32,000 nt of DNA from Ruminococcus albus 7 = DSM 20455 (GCF_000179635.2 NC_014833.1:510001-542000); one strand, 5' to 3'; counted from the stretch's first letter, positions 7,231 to 27,856 are shown. A program made the numbers and translations. The notes: a model not told the origin generated them from the sequence alone.

Positions 7231-7518
7231 ATGGATTTCAGACTTACAGTTAAGCAGAAGATAAGTAATGTTGAATTCGGTGAGGCGGATATCGTCAAGG
7301 CTGCAGGTGCTGACGGAAAATTCGAGGCGCAGGCGCTGCCTTTCGCAAAAACAGCTTCCAACGGATTTATCCGCAGCTGGGCTGAGGGCGTTGGCGTTAC
7401 CCTTGCTACTCAGAAAGACTGGGTAAAGAACATAAAGACAGGCGCTATGGAAAAGGTCGTTACCGTCCGTGACGGCGGCAAGCCACTGACTTACGTATTT
7501 GTACTGGAAACTTTGTGA
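7231..7518 (+). CDS. Hypothetical 95-aa protein
   Basis: A GGGAGGA RBS lies 8 nt upstream. The gene starts 24 nt downstream of the beta-CASP gene and has normal composition. No family was recognised. Confidence 0.55.
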   Translation: MDFRLTVKQKISNVEFGEADIVKAAGADGKFEAQALPFAKTASNGFIRSWAEGVGVTLATQKDWVKNIKTGAMEKVVTVRDGGKPLTYVFVLETL

Positions 7519-7596
7519 TATCCGACGATCGTAATACAATAAAACAATGAACCAAAGCCTTATTAGTTTTCGTACAATTCACCAAATTTTAATAAA

Positions 7597-7609
7597 TTAA
7601 ACGTTTGCG
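7597..7609. promoter_or_regulatory. LacI-type operator-like motif ttAAACGTTTGCG abutting the -35 of the phosphorylase promoter
   Basis: Exact recurrence of the 11-mer AAACGTTTGCG that is also found at 284-294 and 16140-16150. Confidence 0.5.
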
Positions 7610-7612
7610 TTG

Positions 7613-7641
7613 TTGCAATTATTGCAAAAGTATGTTATAAT
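7613..7641 (+). promoter_or_regulatory. Putative extended -10 promoter of the glucan phosphorylase gene
   Basis: TTGCAA (7613-7618), a 17-nt spacer, then TGtTATAAT (7633-7641). The -35 is embedded in a perfect 7-1-7 palindrome, TTGCAATtATTGCAA (7613-7627). Confidence 0.55.
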
Positions 7642-7726
7642 TAACAAGACGATTATTATATAGAGCATTACGGCGGGGTAGATTCATTGGTGTCGTGTGT
7701 TCCTATCATTTCAGGAGGAATGTAAA

Positions 7727-10132
7727 ATGGCTAAAAAAACCGAGAAGACCATATCAAAGGAGGAACTGAAAAAGCAGTTCATCGAGGTACTGCACAACGA
7801 TTTTCAGACCATACCCGATGAGGCGACCGATAAGCAGGTATACGAGGCACTGTCAAAGATAGTTGTCGGCATACTGAAGACCAAGAGAAGACACTTCACA
7901 ATGGCTACACAGTCTGCGGGCAAGAAGAAGGTGTACTACCTTTCTATGGAATTCCTGATGGGACGTTCTCTCAAGACCTCCCTCTACAATCTGGAAATGA
8001 ACAATCAGGCAAAAGAGATGCTCAAAGATCTGGGTATCTCCATAAATGGTATATACGAGCAGGAACCCGATGCAGGTCTGGGCAACGGTGGTCTTGGCAG
8101 ACTTGCTGCCTGCTATTTGGATGCACTGGCTGCTGACGGCTACCACGCAACAGGTTATTCCATATGCTATGAGTACGGTATCTTTAAGCAGAAGCTGGAA
8201 GACGGCTGGCAGACCGAGCTGCCCGATAACTGGCTCCCCGGTGGTTCAGTATGGCTTGTGCCTTCACCTACTAAGGCTATCGAGGTACGCTTTGACGGCG
8301 AGTTGAAGGAGTATTGGGATAATCAGTACCACTGTGTAACTCATGAGAACTATACTTCCGTTATGGCTGTGCCTTACGACCTGTATGTATCAGGCTACGG
8401 CAGCAAAGCTGTATCCAAGCTGAGATTGTGGAAGGCTGAAATGGCTTCTTTTGATATGCCTTTCTTCAACAAGGGCGACTACGCTAAGGCACTTAGCAAG
8501 AACATAATGTCACAGGCTATCACCAAGGTACTTTACCCAAATGATAACCACGCTGAGGGCAAGAGCCTCAGACTTCGTCAGCAGTACTTCCTTTGTGCAG
8601 CTTCCGTGGGCGATATAGTCCACCAGCATATGTCTGTATACGGTACGCTGGATAATCTGCACGAAAAAGTTGCTATACATATCAACGATACTCATCCTAC
8701 ACTTGCTATCCCCGAACTGATGAGGATACTTCTTGATGACTGCGGTTACAGCTGGGATAAAGCATGGCATATCGTTACAAATACATTCGCATACACCAAC
8801 CATACGGTTATGCCCGAGGCACTGGAGAAGTGGGACTGCAATCTGCTGAAGAGCGTTTGCCCCAGAATATTCTCTATAATCATCGAGATAAATGAGAGAT
8901 ACTGTCGTGATCTGTGGGAGAGATACCGCGACGAGGCGAAGTGCGGCCATATGTCCATAGTTGAGAACAACAAGGTAAAGATGGCTACTCTCTGTGTACA
9001 CGCATCACACAGCGTAAACGGTGTTGCAAAGATACACTCCGAGATAATCAAGAAGGAGACTTTCAAGGACGAATATCTTGATACTCCTACCAAGTTCAAG
9101 AACGTTACAAACGGTATCGCATACAGAAGATGGCTGTATCAGTCTAACGAGGGACTGACCGAACTTCTGAGAGAGAAGATCGGTGACGGTTTCCTTAAAA
9201 ATGCGTCCGAACTCAGCAAGCTGGCTGTATTCAAAAACGATGAAAATGTCCTGAACAGGCTGGCAGAAATAAAGAAAGAAAACAAGGAAAAATTTGCAAA
9301 GTACGTCAAAAACCAGTACGGCGCAGTTCTGAATACTGATTCCATATTCGATGTGCAGGTAAAGAGACTCCACGAATACAAGCGCCAGCAGCTGAATGCG
9401 CTGAACATCATCGCTCAGTACAACTATCTGAAAGCTAATCCCAATGCTGATTTCGTGCCCAAGACCTACATCTTTGCGGCTAAGGCAGCACCAGGATACT
9501 ACATGGCTAAGCAGATAATCAAGCTGATATGGAACATCTCTCAGGAACTGAAAAAGAACGATAAGCTGAGAGAAAAGCTGAATGTTATATTCCTGGAAGA
9601 CTACAACGTATCCCTTTCAGAGATACTGATGCCTGCAGCTGATATCTCCGAGCAGATATCCCTTGCAGGTACTGAGGCAAGCGGTACGGGTAACATGAAG
9701 CTGATGATAAACGGTGCTATCACTCTGGGTACCATGGACGGCGCAAATGTTGAGATACACGAGCAGGTAGGCGATGACAACATCATAATCTTCGGTATGA
9801 ACGTTGACGAGGTAAATTCCTGCAAGGCAGGTTACAGACCTATCGAGATCTATAACAAGAATCAGATAGTAAAGCAGGCTATTGACACTATACAGTACGG
9901 TGTGAACGGAGTACAGTTCCCCGAGATAGCCGATGCACTGAAGAATACAGATACCTACATGGCACTGAAGGATTTCGACAGCTATCAGCAGGCACAGAAG
10001 TACGCAAGCGAGTGCTACGCTGACAAGATGAAGTGGCAGAGAATGAGCCTTGCAAATATCGCAGGCGCAGGCATATTCTCCGCTGACCGTTCTGTTGAAG
10101 AGTACGCAAAGGACATCTGGGGACTGACATAA
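7727..10132 (+). CDS. glgP: Glycogen/starch/alpha-glucan (maltodextrin) phosphorylase, GT35
   Basis: Full-length similarity to GT35 phosphorylases, including EPDAGLGNGGLGRLAAC, INDTHP and the PLP-lysine region EASGTGNMKLMINGA. An AGGAGG RBS precedes the ATG at 7727. Confidence 0.95.
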   Translation: MAKKTEKTISKEELKKQFIEVLHNDFQTIPDEATDKQVYEALSKIVVGILKTKRRHFTMATQSAGKKKVYYLSMEFLMGRSLKTSLYNLEMNNQAKEMLKDLGISINGIYEQEPDAGLGNGGLGRLAACYLDALAADGYHATGYSICYEYGIFKQKLEDGWQTELPDNWLPGGSVWLVPSPTKAIEVRFDGELKEYWDNQYHCVTHENYTSVMAVPYDLYVSGYGSKAVSKLRLWKAEMASFDMPFFNKGDYAKALSKNIMSQAITKVLYPNDNHAEGKSLRLRQQYFLCAASVGDIVHQHMSVYGTLDNLHEKVAIHINDTHPTLAIPELMRILLDDCGYSWDKAWHIVTNTFAYTNHTVMPEALEKWDCNLLKSVCPRIFSIIIEINERYCRDLWERYRDEAKCGHMSIVENNKVKMATLCVHASHSVNGVAKIHSEIIKKETFKDEYLDTPTKFKNVTNGIAYRRWLYQSNEGLTELLREKIGDGFLKNASELSKLAVFKNDENVLNRLAEIKKENKEKFAKYVKNQYGAVLNTDSIFDVQVKRLHEYKRQQLNALNIIAQYNYLKANPNADFVPKTYIFAAKAAPGYYMAKQIIKLIWNISQELKKNDKLREKLNVIFLEDYNVSLSEILMPAADISEQISLAGTEASGTGNMKLMINGAITLGTMDGANVEIHEQVGDDNIIIFGMNVDEVNSCKAGYRPIEIYNKNQIVKQAIDTIQYGVNGVQFPEIADALKNTDTYMALKDFDSYQQAQKYASECYADKMKWQRMSLANIAGAGIFSADRSVEEYAKDIWGLT

Positions 10133-10378: not shown

Positions 10379-10840
10379 TTATGAATTGATACGAAGCCCC
10401 TGCATGAAACCGTCGGAGGCTGTGGAACTTACATCACCGCCGATGAGTTTACCGTCACTGACCATAAGGTGACAAAGTATGCAGTCATCTTTTTCATGTT
10501 CGGGGTAGTTGAGGACTTTGTAGGTATACACCTGAACCTGCATACCTTTATATGGTGTAAGGTCAAAGCCCTGCTGTTTCTGGAGCTCGTTGTAGTTTAT
10601 GTATACCTCGCTCCAATCCTCGGGGATAAGTATAGTCTTGACTTCGTCGAACTTTTCGGGGACTTCCCAGCCCATCTCGTGCAGGAAAGTCCTTCGTTTG
10701 CTCTCGCTGTCAAGTATATGGATATTGCTCCTGCCTTTCAGACCGAGTACCAGAAGTACAGCAAGTGCCGCGGCGATAACTGATATAAGTACCCCTGCCC
10801 AGACTTTTGGTCTTCTGACCTTGATAGTGTGTATGAACAT
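10379..10840 (-). CDS. DUF4830 domain-containing membrane-anchored protein
   Basis: N-terminal TM helix, then FLHEMGWEV...YNELQKQQGFDL...YKG...YTY...GGD, which is typical of DUF4830. GGAGGT RBS. Confidence 0.75.
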   Translation of the reverse strand: MFIHTIKVRRPKVWAGVLISVIAAALAVLLVLGLKGRSNIHILDSESKRRTFLHEMGWEVPEKFDEVKTILIPEDWSEVYINYNELQKQQGFDLTPYKGMQVQVYTYKVLNYPEHEKDDCILCHLMVSDGKLIGGDVSSTASDGFMQGLRINS

Positions 10841-11127
10841 CTTATTTTACCTCCATGAGATCATTTTTATCAATAATATGCCAGGTCAATATAAAATAGA
10901 ACTGCGAAAAAAGTTCAGATTTGGATATGATTTTCTGAACTTTTATTTGAGAGACTGAATATGTATATTAAATTTATAATACTATTACTACGCGATTCAA
11001 TTCACGATTAGTATATAAGGTCGGAATTTTAATATGAAAGACCAGCACGATGTTGTGCAAGATTACTAAAAATTTATAGGACAATTAAGGTGAAATCACG
11101 ATTTTAAGGTTTTTTATGCGAATTGTT

Positions 11128-11155
11128 TTGACAATTACAAAATATGTGGTAAAAT
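11128..11155 (+). promoter_or_regulatory. Putative extended -10 promoter
   Basis: TTGACA, a 16-nt spacer, then TGgTAAAAT. It would leave a leader of about 185 nt before the MinD-like gene. Confidence 0.4.
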
Positions 11156-11341
11156 ATATATTAGGTAACACCTACTTTGGTTACGTTTTTCTCAACTACT
11201 GTTTTGCAGGTCATGTGAATGCCGTAAACAAGAGTTTGATCAAATAATTTGACTAAAAGGTAAGTGTGGAGGATATGCGCGGACGGGACAGAGATCATTG
11301 ATACCGTCGTGAGTGCGCATTTGTGAAAGGAGTAGTAGACT

Positions 11342-12079
11342 ATGTCTAAAATCATTGCAGTTACATCAGGTAAGGGTGGAACGGGTAAGTCATCCATCAG
11401 TGCCTGCCTTGGTTATGCACTGGCGAAGCAGGGCAACAGGACTCTGATAATAGAGCTCGACTTCGGACTTAGGTGTATGGACATCATGCTGGGTATGCAG
11501 GGAAACATAACCTACGATCTCGGAGATGTGCTTGAGGGTACCTGCGACGTTTACAAGGCTACGACAACTGTAAAGCTGGCATCGAACCTCAGCGTGCTGT
11601 GTGCACCTTCCGATCCTTTTGTACAGCTCAAGGCAGAGGATATAGAGAAGATAACTCAGGAAATGAGAAAGTATTTTGAATACATCATCATAGATACCTC
11701 AGCAGGTATAAACGGTTCTGTATTCGATATAGTAACTAATTCAGACCTGATACTGATAGTTACAACACCTGACCCCGTATGTGTAAGAGATGCACAGATG
11801 ATGTCTGATGAGTTCTACAAGAGGGGCAATCAGAAGCAGAGACTTGTGATAAACAAGGCAAGCAAGAGGATATTCGAGTTTGATGACATGGACGATCTTG
11901 ATGCGATCATAGACACGGTAGGCGTACAGCTTCTGGGCGTTATACCCGAGGATTCAGCTATACCGCTTGCAACCGGCAAGGGCGCACCGCTTTCATCAAG
12001 TTCAATGGGCTTTGTAGCTTTCTCGGCAATATCGAGAAGGATAAAGGGCGAGCATATACCGATACAGATCAAGATGTAG
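11342..12079 (+). CDS. MinD/ParA-family P-loop ATPase
   Basis: Deviant Walker A (SGKGGTGKSS), Walker B (IIIDTSAG) and MinD-like length and order. No minC or minE lies adjacent. Confidence 0.8.
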   Translation: MSKIIAVTSGKGGTGKSSISACLGYALAKQGNRTLIIELDFGLRCMDIMLGMQGNITYDLGDVLEGTCDVYKATTTVKLASNLSVLCAPSDPFVQLKAEDIEKITQEMRKYFEYIIIDTSAGINGSVFDIVTNSDLILIVTTPDPVCVRDAQMMSDEFYKRGNQKQRLVINKASKRIFEFDDMDDLDAIIDTVGVQLLGVIPEDSAIPLATGKGAPLSSSSMGFVAFSAISRRIKGEHIPIQIKM

Positions 12080-12118
12080 GATCTGGACGAACGACTATTA
12101 TAACTGGGGGGATTCTTT

Positions 12119-12529
12119 TTGAATATAGCACTTATCGCACACGATACCAAGAAAGAACTTATGGTACAGTTCTGTATAGCATACTGCGGAATACTCAGCA
12201 AACACAGACTTTGTGCTACCGGCACTACCGGCAAGATAGTAGCAGAGGCTACCGGACTTTCGATACAGCGTTACATGGGCGGTTCTCAGGGCGGCGATCA
12301 GCAGATAGCAGCAAGGATATCCTGCAACGAGATAGATCTGCTGTTGTTTTTCCGCGATCCTATTTCTGCAAAGCCGCACGAGCCTAATGAGATGAATCTG
12401 TTAAGGCTGTGTGATGTACACAATATACCTGTAGCGACCAATATCGCCACAGCTGAGGCGCTGATACACTCGCTGGAGAGGGGCGACCTCGACTGGAGAG
12501 ATATCGTCAATCCGACTACAGCTAACTGA
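12119..12529 (+). CDS. mgsA: Methylglyoxal synthase
   Basis: [10 protein letters not shown]...ATGTTG...GGDQQI...FFRDP...HEPN...[15 protein letters not shown] is a near-canonical MgsA sequence. TTG start. Confidence 0.9.
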
Positions 12530-12543
12530 GGATAGATCACATT

Positions 12544-12574
12544 ATCGGCAAACACTCTGTTTGCCGATTTTTTG
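12544..12574 (+). terminator. Rho-independent terminator
   Basis: A 10-bp stem (atcggcaaac / gtttgccgat) followed by TTTTTT. Confidence 0.8.
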
Positions 12575-12594
12575 TGTGAATATAAGGAGAAATC

Positions 12595-13191
12595 ATGAAA
12601 CTTTCAGAAATGTTGAATGATAGTCCCTGTGACGAAAATATACACAAGCTGTTGTATGACGGTCTCGACTATGACGGGAGTTCTGCTGACCTTATAATGG
12701 TGCTTGGAAGCAGGAAAGCCTGCGATTACCGCGTACCCGAGGCTGTGAGGCTGTATAATGAGGGTAAAGCACCCCTGATACTTCTGAGCGGAGGTCAGGT
12801 GCAGGATACTTCTCTTGGAAATATGGCTGAATGGGAGAGCATGAAAAAGGCAGCACTTGCACTGGGTATATCAGAAAGTGATATCCTTGCTGAAAAGCTT
12901 TCAAAGAACACTGCCGAAAATTTCATGTATTCAGACGAACTGCTGATCGGATATCTTCCGCTTGGCAGCAAAATAATACTGGTCACCACCGCATATCATA
13001 TGAGACGGGCACTGTGTATGGCACATAAGTTCATGCCGGGGTATGATTTTATTCCCTGTCCTGTGCAAAAGGGGTCTGCTACAAAAGAAAATTGGTACAA
13101 AACTGACAAAGGCAGGCAAACAGCACTTGACGAATGGCGCAAATTAAGTTATTATATAAAGGACGGTATTTTTGAGGATACCAACATCTGA
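12595..13191 (+). CDS. YdcF/ElyC/SanA-family (DUF218) protein
   Basis: Pattern typical of DUF218: LIMVLGS...LILLSGG...NTAENF...ILVTTAYHMRRA. Confidence 0.75.
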   Translation: MKLSEMLNDSPCDENIHKLLYDGLDYDGSSADLIMVLGSRKACDYRVPEAVRLYNEGKAPLILLSGGQVQDTSLGNMAEWESMKKAALALGISESDILAEKLSKNTAENFMYSDELLIGYLPLGSKIILVTTAYHMRRALCMAHKFMPGYDFIPCPVQKGSATKENWYKTDKGRQTALDEWRKLSYYIKDGIFEDTNI

Positions 13192-13313
13192 CGGAGGTCA
13201 AGTATATGAGAGAGGTATTTATCGAGCCGTGGGGAAGTCAGCCGCGACATTGAAGCTGGTTTTATAATACTAACACACCATAACGGCTCATAAAATAATG
13301 GAGGTTAAAAATA

Positions 13314-14636
13314 ATGGCAATGATACAAAGACCAAAGGGCACTGCTGATATGCTGCCCTCACAGGCATATAAATGGCACACGATAGAGAAGCTGGCATCT
13401 GAAACTGCAGAGCAGTACGGATTCAGGGAGATAAGAGTTCCTGCTTTTGAGGAGACAGGACTTTTCCTGCGTTCTGTCGGTGAAACTACCGATGTGGTAC
13501 AGAAAGAGATGTACACCGTTACCGCAACGGGTGACAGCGAATTCACACTTCGTCCTGAGGGTACTGCAGGTGTAATGAGAGCGATGATAGAGAACGGTCT
13601 GCTGAACGAGGCATTTCCCCAGAAGGTGTTCTATCTCATCAACTGCTTCAGACACGAGAATGTTCAGAAGGGCAGACTGCGTGAGTTCCACCAGTTCGGC
13701 TGTGAGATGGTAGGTTCGGCTGATGCAAAGGCTGATGCTGATGTTATATCTATGGCTAAGAGTTTTATGGACAGGATAGGTCTGAGGGATATCGAGCTGA
13801 ATATCAACTCCATCGGCTGTCCTACCTGCCGCGCTAAGTATCAGCAGGCGCTGAGAGAGTATTTCGGCGCAAGACGTGAAGAATTATGCGATACCTGCAA
13901 GGAAAGACTTGAAAAGAACCCAATGCGCCTTCTCGACTGCAAGTCACCTATATGCAAGGAGATAGGCAAGAATGCTCCGCTGATAATAGACTATCTGTGT
14001 GAGGATTGTAACGACCACTTTGAAAAGCTGAAGAAGTACCTCGGTCTGATGGGTATAGATTTCGTTGTAAATCCCCGTATCGTAAGAGGTCTTGACTATT
14101 ACACAAGAACTGTTTTCGAGTTCATATCCAAGGATATCGGTGCACAGGGCACTGTATGCGGCGGCGGACGTTATGACGGTCTAATTGAAGAACTCAGCGG
14201 CAAGGCTGTTCCAGCGCTGGGCTTCGCTATGGGTATAGAAAGGCTCATACTTACTATGGAAGCACAGAACTGTGACTTCATGGAGGCAAAGACCTGCGAC
14301 CTGTATATAGCATCTATGGGTGATGACGCGGCAGACAAGGCTATGGAGCTGGCTATGAAACTGAGAGATGAGGGATACTTTGTTGAGTACGACCTCATGG
14401 GCAGGGGCATAAAGCCTCAGATGAAGTATGCGGGTAAGATCGGCGCGAAATTTGTGCTGGTAATAGGTTCCAGTGAACTGGAGACCGGCTGTGCAAAGCT
14501 GAAGAATATGGCAAGCGGCGAGCAGGCTGACATAAAGCTGGATGACAGCTTTATTGATGATTTCTCAAATGCTCTTATGGCTGAGATGTTCAAGGACATC
14601 GACGGCGAAATGGCAGCGCTGCTGGGAAAGGAGTAG
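13314..14636 (+). CDS. hisS: Histidine--tRNA ligase
   Basis: Class II aaRS motifs (FRHENVQKGRLREFHQ, GGGRYDGL) and a HisRS-type anticodon-binding C-terminal domain. Confidence 0.95.
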   Translation: MAMIQRPKGTADMLPSQAYKWHTIEKLASETAEQYGFREIRVPAFEETGLFLRSVGETTDVVQKEMYTVTATGDSEFTLRPEGTAGVMRAMIENGLLNEAFPQKVFYLINCFRHENVQKGRLREFHQFGCEMVGSADAKADADVISMAKSFMDRIGLRDIELNINSIGCPTCRAKYQQALREYFGARREELCDTCKERLEKNPMRLLDCKSPICKEIGKNAPLIIDYLCEDCNDHFEKLKKYLGLMGIDFVVNPRIVRGLDYYTRTVFEFISKDIGAQGTVCGGGRYDGLIEELSGKAVPALGFAMGIERLILTMEAQNCDFMEAKTCDLYIASMGDDAADKAMELAMKLRDEGYFVEYDLMGRGIKPQMKYAGKIGAKFVLVIGSSELETGCAKLKNMASGEQADIKLDDSFIDDFSNALMAEMFKDIDGEMAALLGKE

Positions 14637-14639
14637 ATC

Positions 14640-14960
14640 ATGGCTGGCAACAGATGTGAACAGTGTGAGAATATCATGGTCAGGGAAATTATAAGTCCGC
14701 AGGAATATCTTTTCTGTGCGAATTCTCTTGTGGGACTGCTTATAGCGGGCGATGTTGAGATGACATTCTCCAATTGTCCCCTCGGCAGGATAGTTGATGA
14801 TGATATGAAATTTACCAAGAACAGATATTTCCACCAGTTCAGATGTACGAAGTGCGGTACGATATACGGTATGCTCTTTAATACAAAAACAGGCGGAGAG
14901 ATAAGGATAAACGATAAGGTCTTCAATCCGGCAGATTATCCCGATAAGAAGGAAGAGTGA
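14640..14960 (+). CDS. Hypothetical Cys-rich (zinc-ribbon-like) protein, 106 aa
   Basis: CxxC at the N-terminus (CEQC) and a second CxxC (CTKC). An AAGGAG RBS is embedded in the end of hisS, and the gene starts 3 nt after the hisS stop. Confidence 0.55.
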   Translation: MAGNRCEQCENIMVREIISPQEYLFCANSLVGLLIAGDVEMTFSNCPLGRIVDDDMKFTKNRYFHQFRCTKCGTIYGMLFNTKTGGEIRINDKVFNPADYPDKKEE

Positions 14961-14964
14961 GCAG

Positions 14965-15447
14965 ATGGCTGAGAATTACAGCATCACTGTTCAGCTGAAT
15001 AAAAAGAAGCTGAAAAAGCACCTTAACTGCGACCTGGTAGAGTATAAGCCTTCGATGAACGTGCTGAGCATGGGCAGATTCATGAGAAATCACAAGATGG
15101 AGAGCATATACTACGGCAGAGTCAGTGGTGACAATGTGCAGATATTCTACCACAAGGCGAAAAAGAAAGATGGCGGTATGACCGGCTTTTTCGGTAAGAT
15201 GACCGAAAAGGACGATGTCTGTGAGCTTACGGGAAAATTCCGCAAGCCTCTGTATGCCTATATCTCGGCGGTGATACTTATACTGTTTTGCATCGCCTGT
15301 GCGATAGGTACTTTAGCTGCCGGCTCATGGCAGGGGGCTCTGGTGTTTCTTGGGATAGGTGCAGGCGGAGGATTTGTCATGCTTTACGATAACTACAAGA
15401 AATATCTGAAAAAATATCTTGACGGACTTGCTGATAAAAAACGATGA
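14965..15447 (+). CDS. Hypothetical membrane protein, 160 aa
   Basis: RBS present. Two C-terminal hydrophobic helices. Tightly packed behind the zinc-ribbon gene. Confidence 0.5.
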   Translation: MAENYSITVQLNKKKLKKHLNCDLVEYKPSMNVLSMGRFMRNHKMESIYYGRVSGDNVQIFYHKAKKKDGGMTGFFGKMTEKDDVCELTGKFRKPLYAYISAVILILFCIACAIGTLAAGSWQGALVFLGIGAGGGFVMLYDNYKKYLKKYLDGLADKKR

Positions 15448-18724: not shown

Positions 18725-18756
18725 TCGCCGCAGAACACTCTGCGGTGATTTTTTTT
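18725..18756 (+). terminator. Rho-independent terminator
   Basis: Stem tcgccgcaga / tctgcggtga followed by TTTTTTTT. Confidence 0.75.
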
Positions 18757-18902
18757 CGTGAGATACTACCTGTTGGGTCAGACTGATGACACAAAATGCT
18801 AAATATGCCGAATCTCAAAGAAAAGGGTTAGTCAATATGCTGTAAAAGAGGGGCGGGCTTTTGTGCAAAAGGGTAATTGTTCGTACACATTTTCATAAAA
18901 TA

Positions 18903-18932
18903 TTGACTTGATAAGCTCGGGTGTGATATAAT
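18903..18932 (+). promoter_or_regulatory. Putative strong extended -10 promoter of the dynamin operon
   Basis: TTGACT, an 18-nt spacer, then TGaTATAAT. Confidence 0.55.
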
Positions 18933-19026
18933 TTATAGTGATATAAAATTACTCGCTGCCACGATGTTCCGAACGGCTGCGGCAGTCTGAATGTGTATAA
19001 TATTTTTTGAAAACGGAGGTCAATCC

Positions 19027-21153
19027 ATGGAAAAGCAGATCAATTATGGAAGCTATGCAGGCTATAAGGAAACCGTAGGAAACCTTACTGCCGATCTGCA
19101 GGAGCTTCTGAAGCTCAGCGAAGAGATAGCTTTGGTCAATACCGCCGAATCTATAAAGGAGACGCTTGAAAAGGCTAAGGACGAGCATTTCGAGGTCGCT
19201 ATCGTCGGTGAGTTCAAGAGAGGTAAAAGTACGCTGATAAACGCACTCCTCGGTCAGGAAGTACTGCCTGCCGATGTTCTGCCTGCGACCGCTACCCTTA
19301 ACAGAGTTACTTACAGCACAGAGCCTTATGTTCAGGTCGAGTATAAGAATGGTGAATCCGAGCGTGTTGAGATAGACAGGCTTGAGGAGTATGTCACCAA
19401 GCTGACAAGTGAGTCTGAACGCAAGGCGGAAACTGTAAAGGAAGCAACGGTATACTACGATACCGAATTCTGCCGTAATAACGTGGATATAATCGACACT
19501 CCCGGTCTTAATGATGACGATCAGATGACAAATGTTACCATGTCTATCATACCCAAGATAGATGCGGCTGTTTTCGTTATAAGTGCGAATTCTCCGTTTT
19601 CACAGTTTGAGAAGGAGTTCCTCGAAAAGAAGATGCTTACCTCCGATGTGGGACGTATCATATTCGTTGTAAACTGTTTCGGTACCTTCACTCAGGACGA
19701 TGAGAACAAGATAGTTGAAACTGTACGTACCCGTATCGGTAAGTACGTTATGGAAAAGGCGAAGAAGGTCATGGGCGAGGACAGCCGTGAGTTCGCCGTA
19801 TATAAGAGAAAGATAGGCACACCGAGAGTTATCGGTGTGTATGCGAAGCGTGCCCTGACAGCTAAAACTTCGGGCGATCAGGCGCTGCTGGAGGAATCTA
19901 ATTTCCCTGAGTTTGAAAATGCACTTGAAACTCTGCTTACTCAGGAACGCGGTGTTATCACTCTCCAGATACTTGCAAACAAGATCACTAATTCGGGTAC
20001 CGAGATACTGCGTTCGATAGTAATGCAGGAGAATGCCCTGATGATGGCTAATGATGAATTCATGGAGAAGTACGATGCTGCCATCAAGGAGATCGATGAG
20101 ATCAGAAATATGAAGCGTTCTGAGTTCGTTAAGATCAATGACGCTGCTAATAAGGTGTTCGAGGATCTGCGTCCTGTACTTGATAATTACTGGAGCAATA
20201 TCGAGGAGGCAGCTATGGAAGTTATCGACAACTTCCAGATGTCTTCTGACGATTTCAAGAAGGACAGGCTCAAACTCGTAAGCTCCAAGCTCACCGAGAA
20301 GATCAAGGAGAGCATGGAAGTAAGAGCGCAGCTGATCTGCGAGCAGATACAGAACAGCATAAATCAGGCTGTAAGCGGTGAGACTGAGAGACTGCAGGAA
20401 TTCGAGGACGAGTTCTTCGAGAGCGTTGCAGCTATCCAGAGGATGTTTGCAGTATCCGACAGAGTATCTTCAAACGGCGGTACACTGGATAAGGTGATAG
20501 GTGCGGCTACCGGTGCTTACGGCGTAGGCGGTGTATATCTGGGATTCAGAGAATCAGGCATAAAGGGCGCACTGCTGGGCGGCGCTACGGGTCTTGCGGG
20601 CTTCTATGCTACCTACTACGCAGCTATGTTCTTTTCGGGCTTCTTCGGTCTGACAGGCGGTCTGCCGGTCATGCTGGTAATGATGGCATTTGCAGGTATC
20701 GCAGGTACCTTTACGTCTAACTTCGCAGTGGACAAGATACTCGTTCAGGAGAGGATAGATAAGTACAAGACCAACTTCAAGGCTAATGTCAAGAAGCAGT
20801 TCCACGAGATGAAGCTGAACAACGACTTCACTGAGACAGTAAGACGTCAGGTATTCTCCTCATTCGACAGCATCAAGAGCAAGATCGAGGAAGAGACCGA
20901 GATCATACTGAGGGATACACAGGAAACACTGGATAACCTCAATGATCTAAAGGCAGAGAAGTCCGAAGTATCCCAGAAGGAGATGGAAAGACTTCACGTT
21001 ATCGCAGAGACTGCCAGCAAGCTGGTTCAGGATGCTTATGCTGTAAGAAAGGTCCTCAACGACGAGATAAGCATAAACAATCCTCAGGCTGAAAAGACCG
21101 AGAAGACAGAACAGACCGAGCAGGAAGAAAAGGCAGAAAATACTGAAAAATAA
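19027..21153 (+). CDS. Bacterial dynamin-like GTPase with a C-proximal glycine-rich membrane-insertion region
   Basis: G1 GEFKRGKST (19207-19230), G3 DTPGLND (19495-19506) and a long helical stalk. A Gly/Ala-rich hydrophobic block of about 85 aa lies at roughly 20470-20735, followed by a coiled-coil and an acidic EKTEKTEQTEQEEK tail. A GGAGGT RBS precedes the ATG at 19027. Confidence 0.85.
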   Translation: MEKQINYGSYAGYKETVGNLTADLQELLKLSEEIALVNTAESIKETLEKAKDEHFEVAIVGEFKRGKSTLINALLGQEVLPADVLPATATLNRVTYSTEPYVQVEYKNGESERVEIDRLEEYVTKLTSESERKAETVKEATVYYDTEFCRNNVDIIDTPGLNDDDQMTNVTMSIIPKIDAAVFVISANSPFSQFEKEFLEKKMLTSDVGRIIFVVNCFGTFTQDDENKIVETVRTRIGKYVMEKAKKVMGEDSREFAVYKRKIGTPRVIGVYAKRALTAKTSGDQALLEESNFPEFENALETLLTQERGVITLQILANKITNSGTEILRSIVMQENALMMANDEFMEKYDAAIKEIDEIRNMKRSEFVKINDAANKVFEDLRPVLDNYWSNIEEAAMEVIDNFQMSSDDFKKDRLKLVSSKLTEKIKESMEVRAQLICEQIQNSINQAVSGETERLQEFEDEFFESVAAIQRMFAVSDRVSSNGGTLDKVIGAATGAYGVGGVYLGFRESGIKGALLGGATGLAGFYATYYAAMFFSGFFGLTGGLPVMLVMMAFAGIAGTFTSNFAVDKILVQERIDKYKTNFKANVKKQFHEMKLNNDFTETVRRQVFSSFDSIKSKIEEETEIILRDTQETLDNLNDLKAEKSEVSQKEMERLHVIAETASKLVQDAYAVRKVLNDEISINNPQAEKTEKTEQTEQEEKAENTEK

Positions 21154-21198
21154 TGAAGATGTGGATGCGCAGAACATTCCAATAAGGGAGGACACTCA

Positions 21199-22179
21199 AT
21201 GAGTGACATAAATGCGAAAGTCAATCCGCTTCTTCAGATCGACACGGGTTTTCGTTCTTACCTGAAAGCCTACACGAGGTCGTATCAAAGCCATATGGTA
21301 GACGGCAGTCTTGACTATGCCTTTGAGTCCGACTTTGCGGTAAGGCAGAAGATAATGAGTCTGGGGGGCAGCGCTAAGCTGTTCAAGGCGGTAAATACAC
21401 AGGATATATCGGCGGAAGCTAAGCATCTGTTCGTTAAGTGCGATCAGGTCGGACCGCTGAAGTATCCCGAGATATATGATAAGGTCAAAAAATGTGCTGA
21501 ACGTCTGGAACTTATCGTACCGATAGTATTCATTCGCGAGGACATGAACAGACCGCTGGCATATTCTATCACCAGCGATCTGATAGAGCCGTGTATAGTA
21601 CTGACGAAGCAGTTGGTAGAGCTATGCAGCGATGATGAGCTCATGCTGCTTATCGGCAGCGAATGCGGCAGGGTACAGAATAACCACTGTACCTTTAATA
21701 TGGCATATACTTACCTCAAAGTAAATAATGAGGTGTTCAGACCCGTTGAAAGGTTCTATACACAGACTATAGGCAGCCAGCTTTATTCTGCGCTGGTACA
21801 GTGGGTCAGATACGCAGATGTTACTGCGAACCGCGCAGGTATAATATGTCTGGATAAGCCCGGACAGTACCTTAAAATAATGTGCGGACTTTACCGTAAG
21901 GGATATGTGGATTTCTACGGCCGTTCCGGAGCAGGCATCAAATATGATGAACTGAGCTGGCTGAGTGAACAGATACACGGAAGTACTTCAAGAAATCTCA
22001 GCATCAGCAAGGATCTTACGGATATAGAGAGGAGCCTGCTGGCAAGTAATGAATTCTTATACTGCAAAACGCTTTATTCGTGGCGCGAGGACGTTGTGGA
22101 TATGGAGGGTCACGCTGAGAGCGGGCAGATATGTGACGTGCGCACAAGCGTTATCGTCGGGAACGGAGGTCAGCTATGA
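21199..22179 (+). CDS. Hypothetical protein resembling an M48 (HtpX/Ste24-type) metallopeptidase domain with a degenerate zinc site
   Basis: GGGAGGA RBS. DELMLLIGSECGRVQNNH (21658-21687 covers SECGR...H) aligns by eye with the M48 xxLxxVLAHExxHxxxxH region, with both His residues replaced (S and R). RYADVTANRAG (21808-21840) sits where the M48 SRxxExxADxxA motif lies. The stop overlaps the next start (ATGA). Confidence 0.6.
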   Translation: MSDINAKVNPLLQIDTGFRSYLKAYTRSYQSHMVDGSLDYAFESDFAVRQKIMSLGGSAKLFKAVNTQDISAEAKHLFVKCDQVGPLKYPEIYDKVKKCAERLELIVPIVFIREDMNRPLAYSITSDLIEPCIVLTKQLVELCSDDELMLLIGSECGRVQNNHCTFNMAYTYLKVNNEVFRPVERFYTQTIGSQLYSALVQWVRYADVTANRAGIICLDKPGQYLKIMCGLYRKGYVDFYGRSGAGIKYDELSWLSEQIHGSTSRNLSISKDLTDIERSLLASNEFLYCKTLYSWREDVVDMEGHAESGQICDVRTSVIVGNGGQL

Positions 22180-23948
22180 AAGATAATGAGAATGTAATGG
22201 CTGCCGACGAAAATATCAGTACTGTCAGAGAACAGCTCAGTGAGATAATCGAAGATGACAAGATAGCTGAGATACTTGGCAGGGAGTGCGTAGAGCAGCT
22301 GAAGGAGTTCAGGGCGCTGGTGGATAAAAGGCGCGAGGAGCCCTTCACGCTTGTAATACTGGGTGATTTCAAACGCGGCAAAAGCACGATAATCAATGCT
22401 CTGCTGGGCAAGAAGATCGCACCTATAAACGTTACACCCGAAACTTATACGATAAATGAGATCTCCTTTGGTCATACACAGACAGTTGAAGCTATACTTG
22501 AAAACGGTCAGAGAGTACCGCTGGTGCTTGAGGACATAACAAGAGAGAATCTTGAGAAGCGTATGAAGCTGTTCCCTGCGAAGATAAGCTGTGTACAGAT
22601 CAAGGATAATGCACCTATACTGAAAAATATAAGGATAGTTGATACTCCCGGTCTATCAGACCTGGAGAGCCTTGACAAGCAGGTGCAGGACTATATCGTG
22701 AATGCGGATGCAATAATGTATGCTGCAAGCTGTCTGCTGCCTTTTTCGGAATCTGAGCAGGTCTTTCTGGCAACACACGTATCGCCTCAGAGATTCGGTA
22801 TGCTGTATGTGCTGGTCAATATGATCGATGCGCTGAATACTATGGCAGACGTTAATAAAATAATGCGAAGATTCAGGGGCATCTCAGAGAGAATAGTGCC
22901 TAACGCTTTTGTGTACGGTATAAGCGGCGGTGATGAGCTGAAGCGTAAGCTTGGTGAAGAAAGACCCGCAGATAAAGGAACGAGAGAGTTCTATGAAACG
23001 CAGTTTTTCCAGTTTGAGCTTTCGCTGAACAGAGATATCATAATGCAGAAGGATGTTATACGCTCAAAGCGTGTACTGACTATGCTGGATCGTATGCACG
23101 CTGAGATAAGCTCGCGTCTAAGAATGATAAGTGATATGGCTGAGATGGACAAGCAGCTGCTTGAGGATAAGGCAAAGGAGTTCGAGCAGCAGTGCGATGA
23201 ACTTGCGGCTGAGCTTGAAAAGAGAAAGCCTGTGCTTCATCTTTCTATACTGGAGATGCAGCAGGAAGCGGAAACATGGATGTATGAGTTCTTTGCGAAG
23301 CTGAGGACGAGTATACTGGAATGCAGGGCTAAGGACGATATGGGCGAAGATATCTATTCGCCTGAGGATATAGAGAAGTATTTCTACTCATTCCTTATGG
23401 AAAAGGTAGGAGAAGCTTACCGTACCTGCATAGAGTGTCACAGAGATGCTATAACTGAGCTTACGGATAAGATGAGCCGTGAAATGGCAAGTGCACTTGG
23501 GATAACGAATGTAGCGGAAGTCAGCAAAGCACCGTCGGTAGACAGACTGATGATGTCAGCCAACAAGAACGTTACAAGAAGTGTTATGGGTGTCAAGCTT
23601 TTCGGTACAAGTGAGAATTTCTCACCTGCAGCGATGAGTACCTTCTCACTTATAATGAAGAAGAAAAAGCAGACGGATATCATAGATATCGCACTTGAGA
23701 ACTATGATGAGATAAGAATAAATATCGTCAAGGATATCAAGACCGTTTATCAGGATCTGGAAGTAAAGGCTATCTCCAGACTGGAAAGTCTTTACAAATA
23801 TCAGGTCGAGCTTAGCAGGAATGCTATAGATCAGGCTAAGGAAATGGTGGATAACGAGGACAAGAGCGAGCTTCTTGAAACCCTCGCAGATGCTTTGAAG
23901 CGTCTTGAAGCACCGAAGAAGATACTTGATGCTAACCTGCCTGCGTAA
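22176..23948 (+). CDS. Bacterial dynamin-like GTPase (soluble paralogue)
   Basis: G1 GDFKRGKST (22362-22385), G3 DTPGLSD (22641-22652), G4-like NMID, and a helical stalk. No long hydrophobic block. The ATG at 22176 overlaps the upstream TGA. Confidence 0.85.
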   Translation: MKDNENVMAADENISTVREQLSEIIEDDKIAEILGRECVEQLKEFRALVDKRREEPFTLVILGDFKRGKSTIINALLGKKIAPINVTPETYTINEISFGHTQTVEAILENGQRVPLVLEDITRENLEKRMKLFPAKISCVQIKDNAPILKNIRIVDTPGLSDLESLDKQVQDYIVNADAIMYAASCLLPFSESEQVFLATHVSPQRFGMLYVLVNMIDALNTMADVNKIMRRFRGISERIVPNAFVYGISGGDELKRKLGEERPADKGTREFYETQFFQFELSLNRDIIMQKDVIRSKRVLTMLDRMHAEISSRLRMISDMAEMDKQLLEDKAKEFEQQCDELAAELEKRKPVLHLSILEMQQEAETWMYEFFAKLRTSILECRAKDDMGEDIYSPEDIEKYFYSFLMEKVGEAYRTCIECHRDAITELTDKMSREMASALGITNVAEVSKAPSVDRLMMSANKNVTRSVMGVKLFGTSENFSPAAMSTFSLIMKKKKQTDIIDIALENYDEIRINIVKDIKTVYQDLEVKAISRLESLYKYQVELSRNAIDQAKEMVDNEDKSELLETLADALKRLEAPKKILDANLPA

Positions 23949-23954
23949 TAAAAT

Positions 23955-23988
23955 AAGCCCGCGGAAGAGATCCGTGGGCTTTCTTTTA
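23955..23988. terminator. Intrinsic terminator between convergent genes
   Basis: Stem aagcccgcgga / tccgtgggctt followed by TTCTTTTAT. Confidence 0.7.
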
Positions 23989-23998
23989 TGTTATAGTA

Positions 23999-25075
23999 TT
24001 ATGAGTTGCTAGTGATGATGTCAATGATTATCCTGCTTATTAGCACCAAAAGATATATTATGATAGCAGGTCTGGTAAAGACGGCTTTTGTCACGGCCTT
24101 TTTCTCGACGGATGACTGACCGTCATACGTCCCGAAATAGCTTGCTCTTGTCATTAGTACGTAGAATCCTATCATAGCAACAGCTATCTGCGCTGTGCTG
24201 TTTATGGTGTCGATATGAGGGATCTTCATTGCATTACCGATGGTATATATACTTACAACGGTATTGTTAAGTGCGTGTATTATCAGCGATGGCAGTATCG
24301 AGCCGCTGCCGACTGCGACACAGGCATACATAAGCCCTGTGCCAAATGCAGACACCGCCTGAGGGATATTGCCGTGCATCAGTCCGAAACACAGCGATGA
24401 CAGCAGTATAGCAGTAAATTCGCCGTATTTTGTAAGAGTTCCGAGTATCATTCCGCGGTATACGGTTTCCTCTATGAACGGTGCGATTATGCAGAGATAC
24501 AAAAATTCAAACAATATCGCTGCTGTCGATGGCGTTTTTATTGAGAAATCAGCTTCGGGGATGGTAACTCCTGCCGAATCCATGATATGGACAAAAGCGT
24601 TTATTGCCACTGACAGGAAAACATTTGCTACAAAGCAGGCAGGGAAGTAGTGAAGTCCTTTTTTTGCTCCGTCTGCCGATGGTTTCAGATATCCGTTAAA
24701 GCTGAAACCCAGGACGATGCAGCCGAAAAGCAGGGTGATGATAAGCGAAGTGATAGTTACGGACGAATTGAACACCATAGCGTATGTTGTGGATTGTATT
24801 ACATCCTTGTAATCGCTTTGCAGCAGCTCTGCCGCACTTGTGTACGAGAGCATCTTACCCGAAAGAAAACGGCAGCTAAGGATAATGAAGATCATGTTAA
24901 CGAAATAAGATGTCAGCAACCTGTATGTTATCAGCATGGCGCCAAGCTTCAGGCAATCGTTCTTCAATGCTGTCATATCAGTATTTTCTATGTTATGCTG
25001 AACATATGCTGTTCTGTTGAACAAAAAGCAATCAGCTCCTTTATTTATATAATATAACAGTATATCACATTTCAC
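23999..25075 (-). CDS. CPBP-family intramembrane glutamic endopeptidase (CAAX protease / Abi family)
   Basis: Motif 1 FIEETVYRG, motif 2 FGLMHGN, motif 3 IIHALNN, in a polytopic membrane protein. The start is uncertain: the GTG at 25075 opens the ORF, and the ATG at 24976 is an alternative. Confidence 0.85.
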   Translation of the reverse strand: MKCDILLYYINKGADCFLFNRTAYVQHNIENTDMTALKNDCLKLGAMLITYRLLTSYFVNMIFIILSCRFLSGKMLSYTSAAELLQSDYKDVIQSTTYAMVFNSSVTITSLIITLLFGCIVLGFSFNGYLKPSADGAKKGLHYFPACFVANVFLSVAINAFVHIMDSAGVTIPEADFSIKTPSTAAILFEFLYLCIIAPFIEETVYRGMILGTLTKYGEFTAILLSSLCFGLMHGNIPQAVSAFGTGLMYACVAVGSGSILPSLIIHALNNTVVSIYTIGNAMKIPHIDTINSTAQIAVAMIGFYVLMTRASYFGTYDGQSSVEKKAVTKAVFTRPAIIIYLLVLISRIIIDIITSNS

Positions 25076-25088
25076 TTCAAAAGTAAAG

Positions 25089-25338
25089 CCCTCGCGCGGG
25101 TACGCAGTACGTCATACGCATGGTAAGTTCGGGTAGTATGTTTCTCGGTGCCCATTGTAAGCTATAAAGAAGACCCGGTGACCCTCGCGCGGGTACGCAG
25201 TACGTCACGCCCATGGCAAGTTCGGGTAGTATGTTTCTCGGTGCCCATTTTAAGCTGTAAAGAAGACCCAGTGACCCTTGCGCGGGTACGCAGTACGTCA
25301 TGCCCATGGCAAGTTTGGAGAGTATGTTTCTCGGTGCT
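25089..25338. repeat. Tandem repeat with a 93-bp unit, 2.7 copies
   Basis: Units start at 25089, 25182 and 25275, each with ccct(c/t)gcgcgggtacgcagtacgtca. Copies 1 and 2 differ at about 7 of 93 positions. The third copy is truncated after ...tttctcggtgc. Confidence 0.9.
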
Positions 25339-25676: not shown

Positions 25677-27856
25677 ATGAAAATCTCATCAAGCGTAAAA
25701 AAGCTATCTTCTGCGATGCTTGCGGGCGCAGTGCTTTTTCGCAGACCGCGTTTCTGTCAAACGTGACGATCGAGGCAGAAGCTGCAAGCCTTTGCACTGT
25801 AAACGTTAACAAAACTTATCAGAAGATCGACGGCTTCGGCGGTATCAATCACCCGGAGTGGTACGGTGATCTGACTGATTCAGATCGTGCTATTGCTTTT
25901 GAAAACGGCAATAACCAGCTGGGTTGTACGATCCTGAGAGTATTTGTAAACCCTGACAAAAACCAGTGGTACAAAGTTCTCCCGACAGCACAGTATGCTG
26001 CTAAGAGAGGCATCACCATTTTCGCTTCACCTTGGGAGCCGCCCGCAAGTCTGGCTGAAAACGGTTCTGCTTACGGCGGTAAGCTCCATCTTCCAAGAAA
26101 AAATTACGGAGCATACGCTCAGCACCTTAATGATTTCGGTAAATACATGAAGCAGAACGGCGTTAATCTGTATGCTATCTCTGTACAGAACGAGCCGGAC
26201 TACGCTAAGGACTGGACAGCTTGGACACCGGACGAGACTACTGACTTCATTGCTAACTATGGCGACCAGATAACCAGCACAAAGCTCATGTCGCCAGAAT
26301 CATTCCAGTATGGCGCATATAACAACGGTAAGGACTACTACTCAAAGATCCTTAATAACTCAAAGGCTTATGCAAACTGTGACATATTCGGAACTCACTT
26401 CTACGGCACACCCAGAAGTAAGATGGACTTCCCGGCACTTGAAAACTGCGGCAAACAGCTGTGGATGACTGAAGTATATGTTCCTGACAGCAATGTCGAT
26501 TCAAACATATGGCCTGATAACCTGAAGCAGGCTGTAAGCATTCATGATTCACTGGTTGTAGGCGGTATGCAGGCTTACGTTGTATGGCCGCTTCGCCGTA
26601 ATTACAGCATTCTCCGTGAAGATACACACAAGATATCAAAGCGTGGTTATGCTTTTGCACAGTACTCAAAGTTCGTTCGTCCCGGCGATGTTCGTGTAGA
26701 TGTCACTGAGCAGCCTTCATCTAACGTTTTTGTATCTGCATACAAGAACAATAAGAATCAGGTAACTATCGTTGCTATCAATAACAGCAGTTCAGGTTAT
26801 TCACAGCAGTTCTCACTGAACGGCAAGACCATAATCGATGTTGACAGATGGCGCACATCAGGCAGCGAGAACCTGGCTGAGACCGATAATCTCACTATCG
26901 ACAATGGTACAAGCTTCTGGGCACAGCTTCCCGCACAGAGCGTTTCTACTTTCGTATGCACACTTAGCGGCGGCAGCTCTTCCGGCAACAACGGTTCATC
27001 CAATACAGAGCTTGATTCTGACGGTTACTACTTCCACGATACATTTGAGGATGATTTAACATGGCAGGCACACGGCGGCACAGAACTGCTGAAGTCCGGC
27101 AGAACTCCCTATAAGGGCAGCGAAGCTGTTGTAGTTACTAACCGTACAAGTGCATGGATGGGTGCAGAGCGTACACTTCCTTCTTCTGTCGTTCCCGGCA
27201 AGACCTACAGCTTCTCTGTAAACGTAACAGAGCTTGATGGTGAGGATACCGAAACATTCTATCTCAAGCTCAACTATACCGATTCAAGCGGAACAGCACA
27301 CTATCCTACAATTGCAGAGGGTGTTTGCCCCAAGGGCAAGTATCTGCAGCTCAGCAATACTAATTATACCATCCCCTCTGATGCAGTTGACCCTGTTATC
27401 TATGTAGAAACCAAGGATACCACTTCTAACTTCTACATTGATGAAGCTATCTGTGCTCCTGCAGGCAAGAGTCTGCCCGGCGCAGGTATCCCTGAGATAC
27501 CCAGCAATAACAATAACAACAATAACAACAATAATAACAATAATAACAACAATAATAACAACAACCAGAACAACTCGGTATATCCGGTTGTATCATCTAT
27601 TGATTACAACGTGACATACCATCAGTTCAGAATAAGCTGGAATTCTGTTCCAAATGCTCAGGCATACGGTATCGCATACTATGCAGCAGGCAAGTGGAGA
27701 GTATATACTCAGAGTATCTCTGTGAATACTACTTCATGGATCTCTCCCAAGCTGACAGCAGGCAAGACCTATACCATGGTAATAGCAGCCAAGGTCGGCG
27801 GTAAGTGGGATACTTCTAATCTGTCTTCAAGAGCTATAAATGTTACTGTAAAGTAA
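25677..27856 (+). CDS. xynC: GH30 subfamily 8 glucuronoxylanase (XynC-like) with a CBM22/CBM_4_9-like module, a poly-Asn linker and a C-terminal ~90-aa module; the reading frame is interrupted between signal peptide and catalytic domain
   Basis: The catalytic domain is collinear with B. subtilis XynC: GFGG, SVQNEPDY (acid/base), LWMTEVY (nucleophile), WPLRRNY. An AAGGAGGA RBS and the ATG at 25677 encode MKISSSVKKLSSAMLAGAVLF in frame 0. The main ORF (GTG-opened at 25763) is in frame 2, and the frames join cleanly at the T5 run at 25735-25739. Confidence 0.85.
27506..27574 (+). repeat. AAY trinucleotide microsatellite encoding a 20-Asn run followed by QNN (inter-domain linker)
   Basis: 20 consecutive AAT/AAC codons at 27506-27565, then CAG AAC AAC. 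Confidence 0.9.

Follow-up and report, generated by a model that had tools for sequence, protein, structure and literature searches.

A 32,000-nucleotide (nt) stretch of the Ruminococcus albus 7 = DSM 20455 chromosome (GCF_000179635.2, NC_014833.1:510001-542000; hereafter the window, in whose coordinates positions are given) carries three adjacent open reading frames (ORFs), all on one strand (18991-21153, 21199-22179 and 22176-23948). They encode a dynamin-like GTPase with a hydrophobic tip (gene 1, 'U-type'), a protein of the M48 peptidase fold (gene 2) and a second, soluble dynamin-like GTPase (gene 3, 'D-type'). Bacterial dynamin-like proteins (DLPs) are usually treated as pairs or fusions, and their regulation is little understood. 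A preliminary description of the window, made from its sequence, had taken the three genes for a self-contained operon with tight coupling, its middle gene setting it apart from the described pairs. Here, we report that the middle gene keeps its place between the two dynamins in every locus where the order can be read, and that its product in Ruminococcus has lost the zinc ligands of the M48 family and yet is under strong purifying selection. Judged by sequence comparison, the dynamin/M48/dynamin module is old and widespread, with a pseudo-protease variant in Ruminococcus.

Results

The preliminary description had given the unit its own promoter, one intrinsic terminator before that promoter and another after the last gene. 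All three are found (Table 1) and, together with the packing of the genes, they bear out a self-contained operon. The promoter agrees with the consensus at 11 of 12 positions, adds a TG extension and is the top-scoring site of the region in a consensus scan. It is no chance match, because the -35 hexamer and TGnTATAAT are invariant in a nine-species alignment in which the rest of the intergenic DNA has diverged, and because about 66 of 73 related loci have TGnTATAAT 5' of gene 1. The upstream terminator (10-bp stem, 6 GC pairs, then a T-run), which is also present in two close relatives (L005 and L007), insulates the operon; the closing one has an 11-bp stem, 7 GC pairs and a T-rich tail. Gene 2 starts 45 nt past the gene 1 stop behind its own ribosome-binding site (RBS), and its stop overlaps the start of gene 3 as ATGA; both readings hold. 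For gene 1 the dynamin ORF is present as described, but its start has to be moved from ATG 18991 to ATG 19027. The latter is almost certainly correct because it is preceded by GGAGG and the string AACGGAGGTC..TCCATGGAAAAG is invariant across the nine species, and because the upstream ATG lies in non-conserved sequence. From this layout, co-transcription of the three genes and a fixed stoichiometry of their products appear likely. An Rfam scan of the whole window gave no RNA family match, and the 92-nt leader folds no more stably than shuffled sequences (z = 0.55); we propose no riboswitch or attenuator.

Genes 1 and 3 had been called dynamin-family GTPases, and their G1 (GEFKRGKS and GDFKRGKS) and G3 (DTPG) motifs are indeed intact. 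Both match Pfam Dynamin_N far above its cut-off of 27 bits (gene 1, 1.8e-33, 116 bits; gene 3, 2.3e-21, 77 bits), and 25 D-type sequences show no variation in the P-loop or DTPG. The two proteins share 33% identity, which is confined to the GTPase domain. Gene 1 aligns over its full length with Nostoc BDLP (2j68, residues 38-662, E 4.8e-28), and the AlphaFold2 (AF2) model of gene 3, with a predicted local distance difference test score (pLDDT) of 72, matches BDLP 2j69 over 686 columns (E 3.5e-19), followed by Cj-DLP, IniA and mitofusins. Sequence and model together place both proteins in the BDLP/mitofusin class, with a helical neck and trunk predicted to flank the GTPase domain. A Gly-rich hydrophobic stretch occupies the paddle position of gene 1 (residues ~487-568, hydropathy maximum 1.86 at 532-568), and a hydrophobic region lies at about the same position in all six U-type orthologues examined. 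Gene 3 has no transmembrane (TM) or hydrophobic segment, and its model has a low-confidence tip at residues 442-500. The proposed division into a membrane-anchored and a soluble GTPase thus agrees with a hydrophobic region in the U-type only, and the paddle-position segment is a candidate membrane anchor. Across phyla, U-type and D-type proteins sort into two distinct sets of orthologues, scoring 324-721 bits within U, 205-550 within D and ~90-125 between the two. No curated NCBIfam family reaches its cut-off for the three window proteins or their cyanobacterial counterparts.

The product of gene 2 is a soluble, cytoplasmic protein with neither a TM segment nor a signal peptide, in which an M48 core (residues ~85-230) is framed by family-specific N-terminal (1-80) and C-terminal (235-326) regions. 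It had been described as a degenerate M48-like protein. It does exceed the gathering cut-off of Pfam Peptidase_M48 (PF01435, 24.9 versus 20.3 bits), and the position of HExxH reads SECGR, in which only the Glu is retained. In the alignment with Ste24, AHEIGHWQKNH corresponds to GSECGRVQNNH. The third-ligand region reads ADVTANRAG in the window versus AEVT.DRAG in intact relatives, a change from Glu to Asp. The leading Foldseek matches of the gene 2 model (pLDDT 70), all of them weak (E > 0.01), are Ste24, ZMPSTE24, an HtpX domain and BlaR1.

The same pattern of loss is seen in 77 loci of the Ruminococcus/Oscillospiraceae clade. The position of the first His is unconstrained (C in 38, S in 27, then A, M, G, I, F and Y), that of the second is Arg or Lys except in one locus, and the third ligand is Asp except in one locus, hence canonical zinc binding is lost; the catalytic Glu of HExxH is kept throughout. 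A profile-profile alignment of the Ruminococcus clade with 34 intact relatives, which carry PF01435, has 100% probability over 310 columns and lays out the changes: HECGHIHNxH becomes [C/S]ECGRIQNNH, AEVT.DRAG becomes ADIT.DRAG, and a C-terminal HP...KRI is lost. Purifying selection on gene 2 is strong, with a dN/dS of 0.04-0.10 that is comparable to that of the dynamins (0.03-0.05), and 80 of its ~326 columns are invariant among 17 sequences with identities down to 51%. The most conserved stretch is N-terminal (residues 10-63, NPLL.IDT.F..YL..YTRS...H..G.LDYAF..DFA.RQK) and is common to the intact family as well. Three cysteines of gene 2, C99, C156 and C217 (21493-21495, 21664-21666 and 21847-21849), are invariant in both the degenerate and the intact subfamilies; C156 is the Cys inside HE-C-GH, and the three may form a structural, metal or redox site. 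Present labels for the gene 2 family are 'M48 family metalloprotease', 'M48 family metallopeptidase' and 'hypothetical protein'; to call it a protease probably misleads where the Ruminococcus clade is concerned.

The preliminary description had let the standing of the middle gene depend on conserved synteny. A search with gene 2 returned 132 homologues, all from Ruminococcus or Oscillospiraceae, and a scan of species-representative genomes gave 79 loci of the clade. When the window proteins were placed by tblastn, the order gene 1-gene 2-gene 3 was found in all 83 Ruminococcus/Oscillospiraceae loci save those at contig ends, and the three proteins have respective identities of 60-97%, 38-92% and 44-95%; the gene 2 counterparts in R. 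albus AR67 and KH2T6 are 91-92% identical. From the dynamin side, a D-type profile search gave 822 clusters at E < 1e-30, and the dynamin-side sample consists of three divergent loci (44-51% identity; an Oscillospiraceae metagenome-assembled genome (MAG), Huintestinicola and a third contig). All three have a middle gene of 324-332 aa between dynamins of 683-685 and 580-582 aa, and in each it is a gene 2 homologue in the identical degenerate motif state. The order is therefore kept in all informative loci, whether they were reached from gene 2 or from a dynamin.

Beyond the clade, 1.84 billion representative proteins were searched with a profile, of which 1,136 matched at E <= 0.001 and 207 at E <= 1e-10. 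The full-length relatives (~300-346 aa) mostly have an intact HECGHIHNxH motif, and a search with this intact family gave at least 1,193 clusters (90% identity) at E <= 1e-10. Its named members come from cyanobacteria (Calothrix PCC 7507, Romeria, Hyella, Microseira and Goleter) and Clostridia (C. formicaceticum, Caproiciproducens and Syntrophomonadaceae). The intact-family profile also led to 80 metagenome loci, in which the order is again U-type, M48, D-type wherever the contig extends. At 148 of 160 M48-to-D junctions (79 of 83 in the clade and 69 of 77 with an intact motif) the two genes overlap or lie <=30 nt apart. The middle gene occupies an invariant position in ~170 loci, which represent at least two phyla, namely cyanobacteria and Clostridia. 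The scan patterns themselves include the motif, being typical of the degenerate clade for the genomes and containing GHECGHI for the metagenomes, so the motif state of each sample is pre-selected and the neighbourhood is unaffected. The operon family can be defined by three genes on one strand, of which the middle one encodes a full-length, ~320-aa soluble M48-fold protein and is flanked by genes for a U-type dynamin of ~680 aa with a hydrophobic tip and a D-type dynamin of ~590-620 aa, as found in the window and in all informative loci. Distant M48 proteins that have only the core (Thermus, Rhodococcus and Tsukamurella plasmids) do not adjoin dynamins.

Conservation of the trio order in Oscillospiraceae and other Firmicutes, which had been raised for the R. 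albus locus, is thus found, but the order is not peculiar to them, as it also occurs in cyanobacteria and many metagenome contigs. Since the module is spread across at least two phyla, the finding is broader than first described, and since the same order occurs elsewhere with an intact HECGH...E, the degenerate state in the window is derived. The first zinc-binding His is also replaced, mostly by Arg (RECGH/RECGR), in several branches of the family outside the Ruminococcus clade (P0124, P0125, P0133, P0150, P0217, P0221, P0235, P0247 and P0260), which suggests that catalysis has been dispensable more than once.

The related loci also vary around the trio. A further, X-type dynamin (~570-600 aa) lies upstream of it in L084, L087, L088, L089 and about half of L090-L169, often with one to three small zinc-ribbon genes (DZR / Zn_Ribbon_1), and genes for an HSR1/DUF697 GTPase and a U-like paralogue are further present in the Calothrix locus; all four are missing from the R. 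albus window. The Calothrix trio was considered as the home of the Nostoc BDLP orthologue and rejected, either dynamin scoring ~110 bits. Tandem M48 duplicates (two 305-aa copies) stand between the dynamins in a Clostridiales lineage (L087 7001-8846, L152 and L159). In the myxobacterial locus L086 (7001-9720), an M48 gene (312 aa, HEVGH) overlaps a single 594-aa dynamin gene whose product has its own hydrophobic segment and scores nearer to the U type than to the D type; from this two-gene variant, the M48-dynamin link may be older than the trio. The cyanobacterial Waterburya sp. MAG locus L085 has a Mob_Pre relaxase gene near the trio (1-1076) and, at 10409-14996, lasso-peptide-like genes (PqqD, transglutaminase-core and Asn synthase) followed by another dynamin gene. 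Seven metagenome loci have 0.5-1 kb spacers at the M48-to-D junction with no conserved extra gene: L142 has an IS200/RAYT-like ORF there (7290-7739, 149 aa), and L149, L153, L156, L160, L163 and L166 have no conserved ORF.

A short element upstream of the promoter is also conserved. The exact 10-mer TTTGTGCAAA lies 43-44 nt 5' of the -35 hexamer and 64-65 nt 5' of TGnTATAAT in 45 of 73 related loci, and the cross-species alignment (A3) shows the element unchanged amid divergent flanking DNA. The element, with the candidate sequence form TTTTGTGCAAAA, probably serves as a transcription-factor site. Its centre is ~75 nt 5' of the inferred transcription start (near 18939), and such a fixed spacing would be typical of an activator site. 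The 10-mer and two near-copies are also found 5' of a LacI-family gene (498-507, 727-738 and 808-820). Across the window, TTTGTGCAAA is not significantly enriched (7 matches versus 3.1 +/- 1.8 expected), and we make no regulon claim.

In the window, the trio is surrounded by genes for housekeeping or carbohydrate utilisation. These comprise histidyl-tRNA synthetase (HisRS), a pseudouridine synthase, a MalK-type ABC ATPase and a membrane protein without a family match, as well as a convergent CAAX/Rce1-like protease, a GH30-CBM enzyme, an AraC regulator and a GGDEF protein. The upstream genes stay syntenic with the trio in R. albus relatives. The gene for the CAAX/Rce1-like intramembrane protease (23999-25075, minus strand) follows just downstream of the trio; it is also downstream in R. 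albus relatives (L005, L006, L011 and L029) and lies near the Huintestinicola trio (L174 10931-12091), and its link to the trio may be coincidental. Between it and the GH30-CBM gene, a 93-bp tandem repeat (25089-25337, 2.7 copies, 92% matches) gives spurious repeated ORFs on both strands, and a run of ~20 Asn in the GH30-CBM protein (25763-27856) is an interdomain linker.

Table 1 Features of the R. albus trio in the window, and gene order at related loci (DLP or M48 followed by protein length in aa)
Feature or locus	Position	Strand	Details
Intrinsic terminator of upstream gene	18725..18756	+	Hairpin 18725-18748 and T-run
Upstream element TTTTG-TG-CAAAA, inverted repeat	18859..18871	+	Core TTTGTGCAAA 18860-18869
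Sigma-70-type promoter, extended -10	18903..18932	+	TTGACT 18903-18908, 18-nt spacer, TG 18924-18925, TATAAT 18927-18932
RBS of gene 1, GGAGG	19015..19019	+	Direct reading; invariant in 9 species
Gene 1, 'U-type' dynamin-like GTPase, 708 aa	19027..21153	+	Pfam Dynamin_N, BDLP match
RBS of gene 2, GGGAGGA	21186..21192	+	Direct reading
Gene 2, soluble M48-fold pseudo-protease, 326 aa	21199..22179	+	Pfam Peptidase_M48, degenerate motif
Gene 2/gene 3 coupling junction	22165..22179	+	GGAGG 22165-22169 inside gene 2; ATGA 22176-22179
Gene 3, 'D-type' soluble dynamin-like GTPase, 590 aa	22176..23948	+	Pfam Dynamin_N; GTPase domain, long helical neck/trunk
Intrinsic terminator closing the operon	23955..23988	+	Hairpin 23955-23981 and T-rich tail
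L084			DLP684 - M48 323 - DLP603
L085, Waterburya			DLP692 - M48 331 - DLP618
L086, Sandaracinaceae (myxobacterium)			M48 312 - DLP594 only
L087, Clostridiales			DLP688 - M48 - M48 - DLP589
L088, Calothrix			DLP680 - M48 322 - DLP605
L089, C. formicaceticum			DLP677 - M48 320 - DLP597

Discussion

We consider it reasonably probable that the trio is a chromosomal, vertically inherited membrane-remodelling module of three proteins, in which the M48-like protein serves a heterotypic dynamin pair as a regulatory or adaptor subunit without catalysis. A hydrophobic hairpin at the tip of its stalk would fix the U-type protein to the cytoplasmic side of the membrane, with the D-type protein as its soluble heterotypic partner, and by analogy with characterised bacterial dynamin pairs the two would assemble in a GTP-dependent manner to tether, fuse or seal membrane. 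A dedicated regulator acting through the conserved upstream DNA site would switch the operon on, and through translational coupling the gene 2 protein would be made in step with the gene 3 protein. The M48-fold subunit would bind the dynamin pair; it is probably an active zinc protease in most lineages, where the motifs are present, and in Ruminococcus and other Oscillospiraceae it would be a pseudo-protease that still holds its former substrate or partner.

Gene anatomy, family and fold assignments, loss of the ligands, selection and synteny are shown by the data above, and on top of them we infer the membrane role, the adaptor function, the regulation and a physical complex of the three proteins. 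Several points speak against this proposal. The gene 2 model is of modest confidence and its structural matches to the M48 fold are weak. The conserved N-terminal stretch of gene 2 may be the partner-binding element, which is a guess because its most conserved segment (residues 13-50) is modelled with low confidence. The Asp at the third ligand, the often-present Cys and the retained catalytic Glu could support residual chemistry. The scans pre-select the motif state, so that the neighbourhood result alone is unbiased. Lastly, no neighbouring gene points to a physiological process such as repair, division, vesicle formation or defence.

In mitochondria, the M48 protease OMA1 processes the dynamin-like OPA1. 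A similar arrangement, which we regard as rather doubtful for the trio, would have the M48 protein control the heterotypic dynamin pair as a protease that cleaves or clamps one partner under membrane stress, and it would have become a permanent, non-cleaving subunit in Ruminococcus and several other lineages that independently lost the first His.

The preliminary description had also raised an anti-phage role, and it is unlikely that the trio serves phage defence or abortive infection in the manner of Eleos (LeoA/LeoBC, 'Dynamins'), with the M48-like protein as an added sensor or effector. Eleos is a defence system of two dynamin-like genes (bioRxiv 10.1101/2022.12.12.520048), both window dynamins match the PADLOC LeoA and LeoBC models (3.6e-22 to 2.3e-9), and DynA of B. 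subtilis is reported to give phage protection (PMC8844932); in addition, the Calothrix trio adjoins CHAT and caspase-WD40 genes. However, the M48 partner has no PADLOC model, and the NCBIfam LeoA/HP0731 model scores 21.5 bits against a cut-off of 325. The R. albus trio is flanked by HisRS, pseudouridine synthase and ABC ATPase genes that are syntenic among its relatives, other trio loci are likewise flanked by housekeeping genes, and the trio is present in 79 species-representative genomes of the clade. Neither the degenerate nor the intact M48 family has relatives in IMG/VR viral contigs, and PLSDB plasmids hold only distant, core-only M48 proteins that are not next to dynamins and no U-type dynamin orthologue. 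All three genes are highly conserved, and the 60-97% identity of gene 1 and a dN/dS of ~0.03-0.05 are unlike fast-evolving, patchy defence genes. Neither the housekeeping flanks nor the outcome for viral contigs and plasmids thus lends support to an anti-phage role.

It is improbable that gene 2 still encodes an active protease, one with a non-canonical active site that processes a dynamin as OMA1 does OPA1. The invariant catalytic Glu, the Asp at the third ligand, the three cysteines that are invariant in both subfamilies and the intact HECGH...E of most relatives in the same position would fit such an activity. Against it, the first His varies freely, the second has become Arg or Lys and is unable to ligate zinc, and the conserved C-terminal HP...KRI of intact relatives is gone; the dynamins of degenerate and intact operons show no length difference or lost segment. 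That the middle gene is an unrelated passenger between two dynamin genes, such as a general proteostasis factor, is very improbable: gene 2 does diverge faster than its neighbours (38-92% identity versus 60-97% and 44-95%), but its position is invariant in ~170 loci from at least two phyla with a start/stop overlap with the downstream dynamin, the full-length family with its N- and C-terminal extensions is found in dynamin context only, and the core-only distant M48 proteins are unlinked to dynamins.

The adaptor proposal, with which we stay, gives a handle on the control of a heterotypic dynamin pair through a third linked partner. Moreover, intact and dead protease motifs in otherwise orthologous operons are a natural experiment on catalytic versus scaffolding roles.

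Comparison with known systems

Among M48 metallopeptidases, gene 2 resembles HtpX, Ste24, BepA and OMA1 in its Pfam M48 score above cut-off, its motif alignment with Ste24 and its top Foldseek matches, weak as these are. It differs from them in being soluble, in the replacement of all three zinc ligands and in its family-specific N- and C-terminal regions. The OPA1 system likewise has membrane-anchored and soluble forms, but its protease OMA1 is an integral membrane protein and OPA1 itself falls outside the BDLP/mitofusin class. The likeness of the trio to OMA1-OPA1, an M48-family protein tied to a dynamin-superfamily system with anchored and soluble forms, would therefore be one of functional analogy only: there is no sign of common descent, and gene 2 is unable to bind zinc canonically.

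With Eleos the trio shares a soluble and a (here predicted) membrane-associated dynamin-like GTPase, each matched by a PADLOC hidden Markov model. It differs in having three genes instead of two, with the M48 gene separating the dynamins, in missing the NCBIfam LeoA cut-off widely and in its housekeeping context with no defence island.

The nearest likeness is to the bacterial dynamin pairs. Like Campylobacter Cj-DLP1/2, Streptomyces DynA/DynB and Nostoc BDLP, the R. albus dynamins are two adjacent paralogous GTPases of the BDLP/mitofusin class in one operon, and BDLP (2j68/2j69), Cj-DLP (5owv) and IniA are their best matches in sequence and structure. The Cj-DLP1/2 and DynA/B pairs provide the model of heterotypic partnership (PMC6104087). 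In the Campylobacter operon, the dynamin pair is followed instead by an HcpA-like beta-lactamase gene (PMC6104087), and the neighbour classes of cyanobacterial DLPs (HSR1, DnaK and tandem) include no protease (PMC5827413). The fused DynA of B. subtilis, for which a role in membrane repair and phage tolerance has been proposed, resembles the trio in having two BDLP-type modules that act together and differs from it in that these are separate genes here; with the NCBIfam DynA equivalog NF052648 (a two-headed fused DLP of ~1200 aa), whose cut-off is 1600 bits, the scores are 57 and 53. The available part of the account of DynA interactors reports no M48 partner (PMC3460841). Literature linking bacterial dynamins with M48 proteins, or R. 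albus with dynamin, yielded nothing relevant, subscription-only papers excepted, and the middle protein has no curated NCBIfam or PADLOC model. This agrees with the claim that a third gene between the paralogues lies outside the described pairs. The pairs themselves are already well known, and what sets the trio apart from them is a third, translationally coupled M48-fold gene between the paralogues; what appears new, as far as sequence can tell, is hence a dynamin pair with an obligatory M48-fold third subunit.

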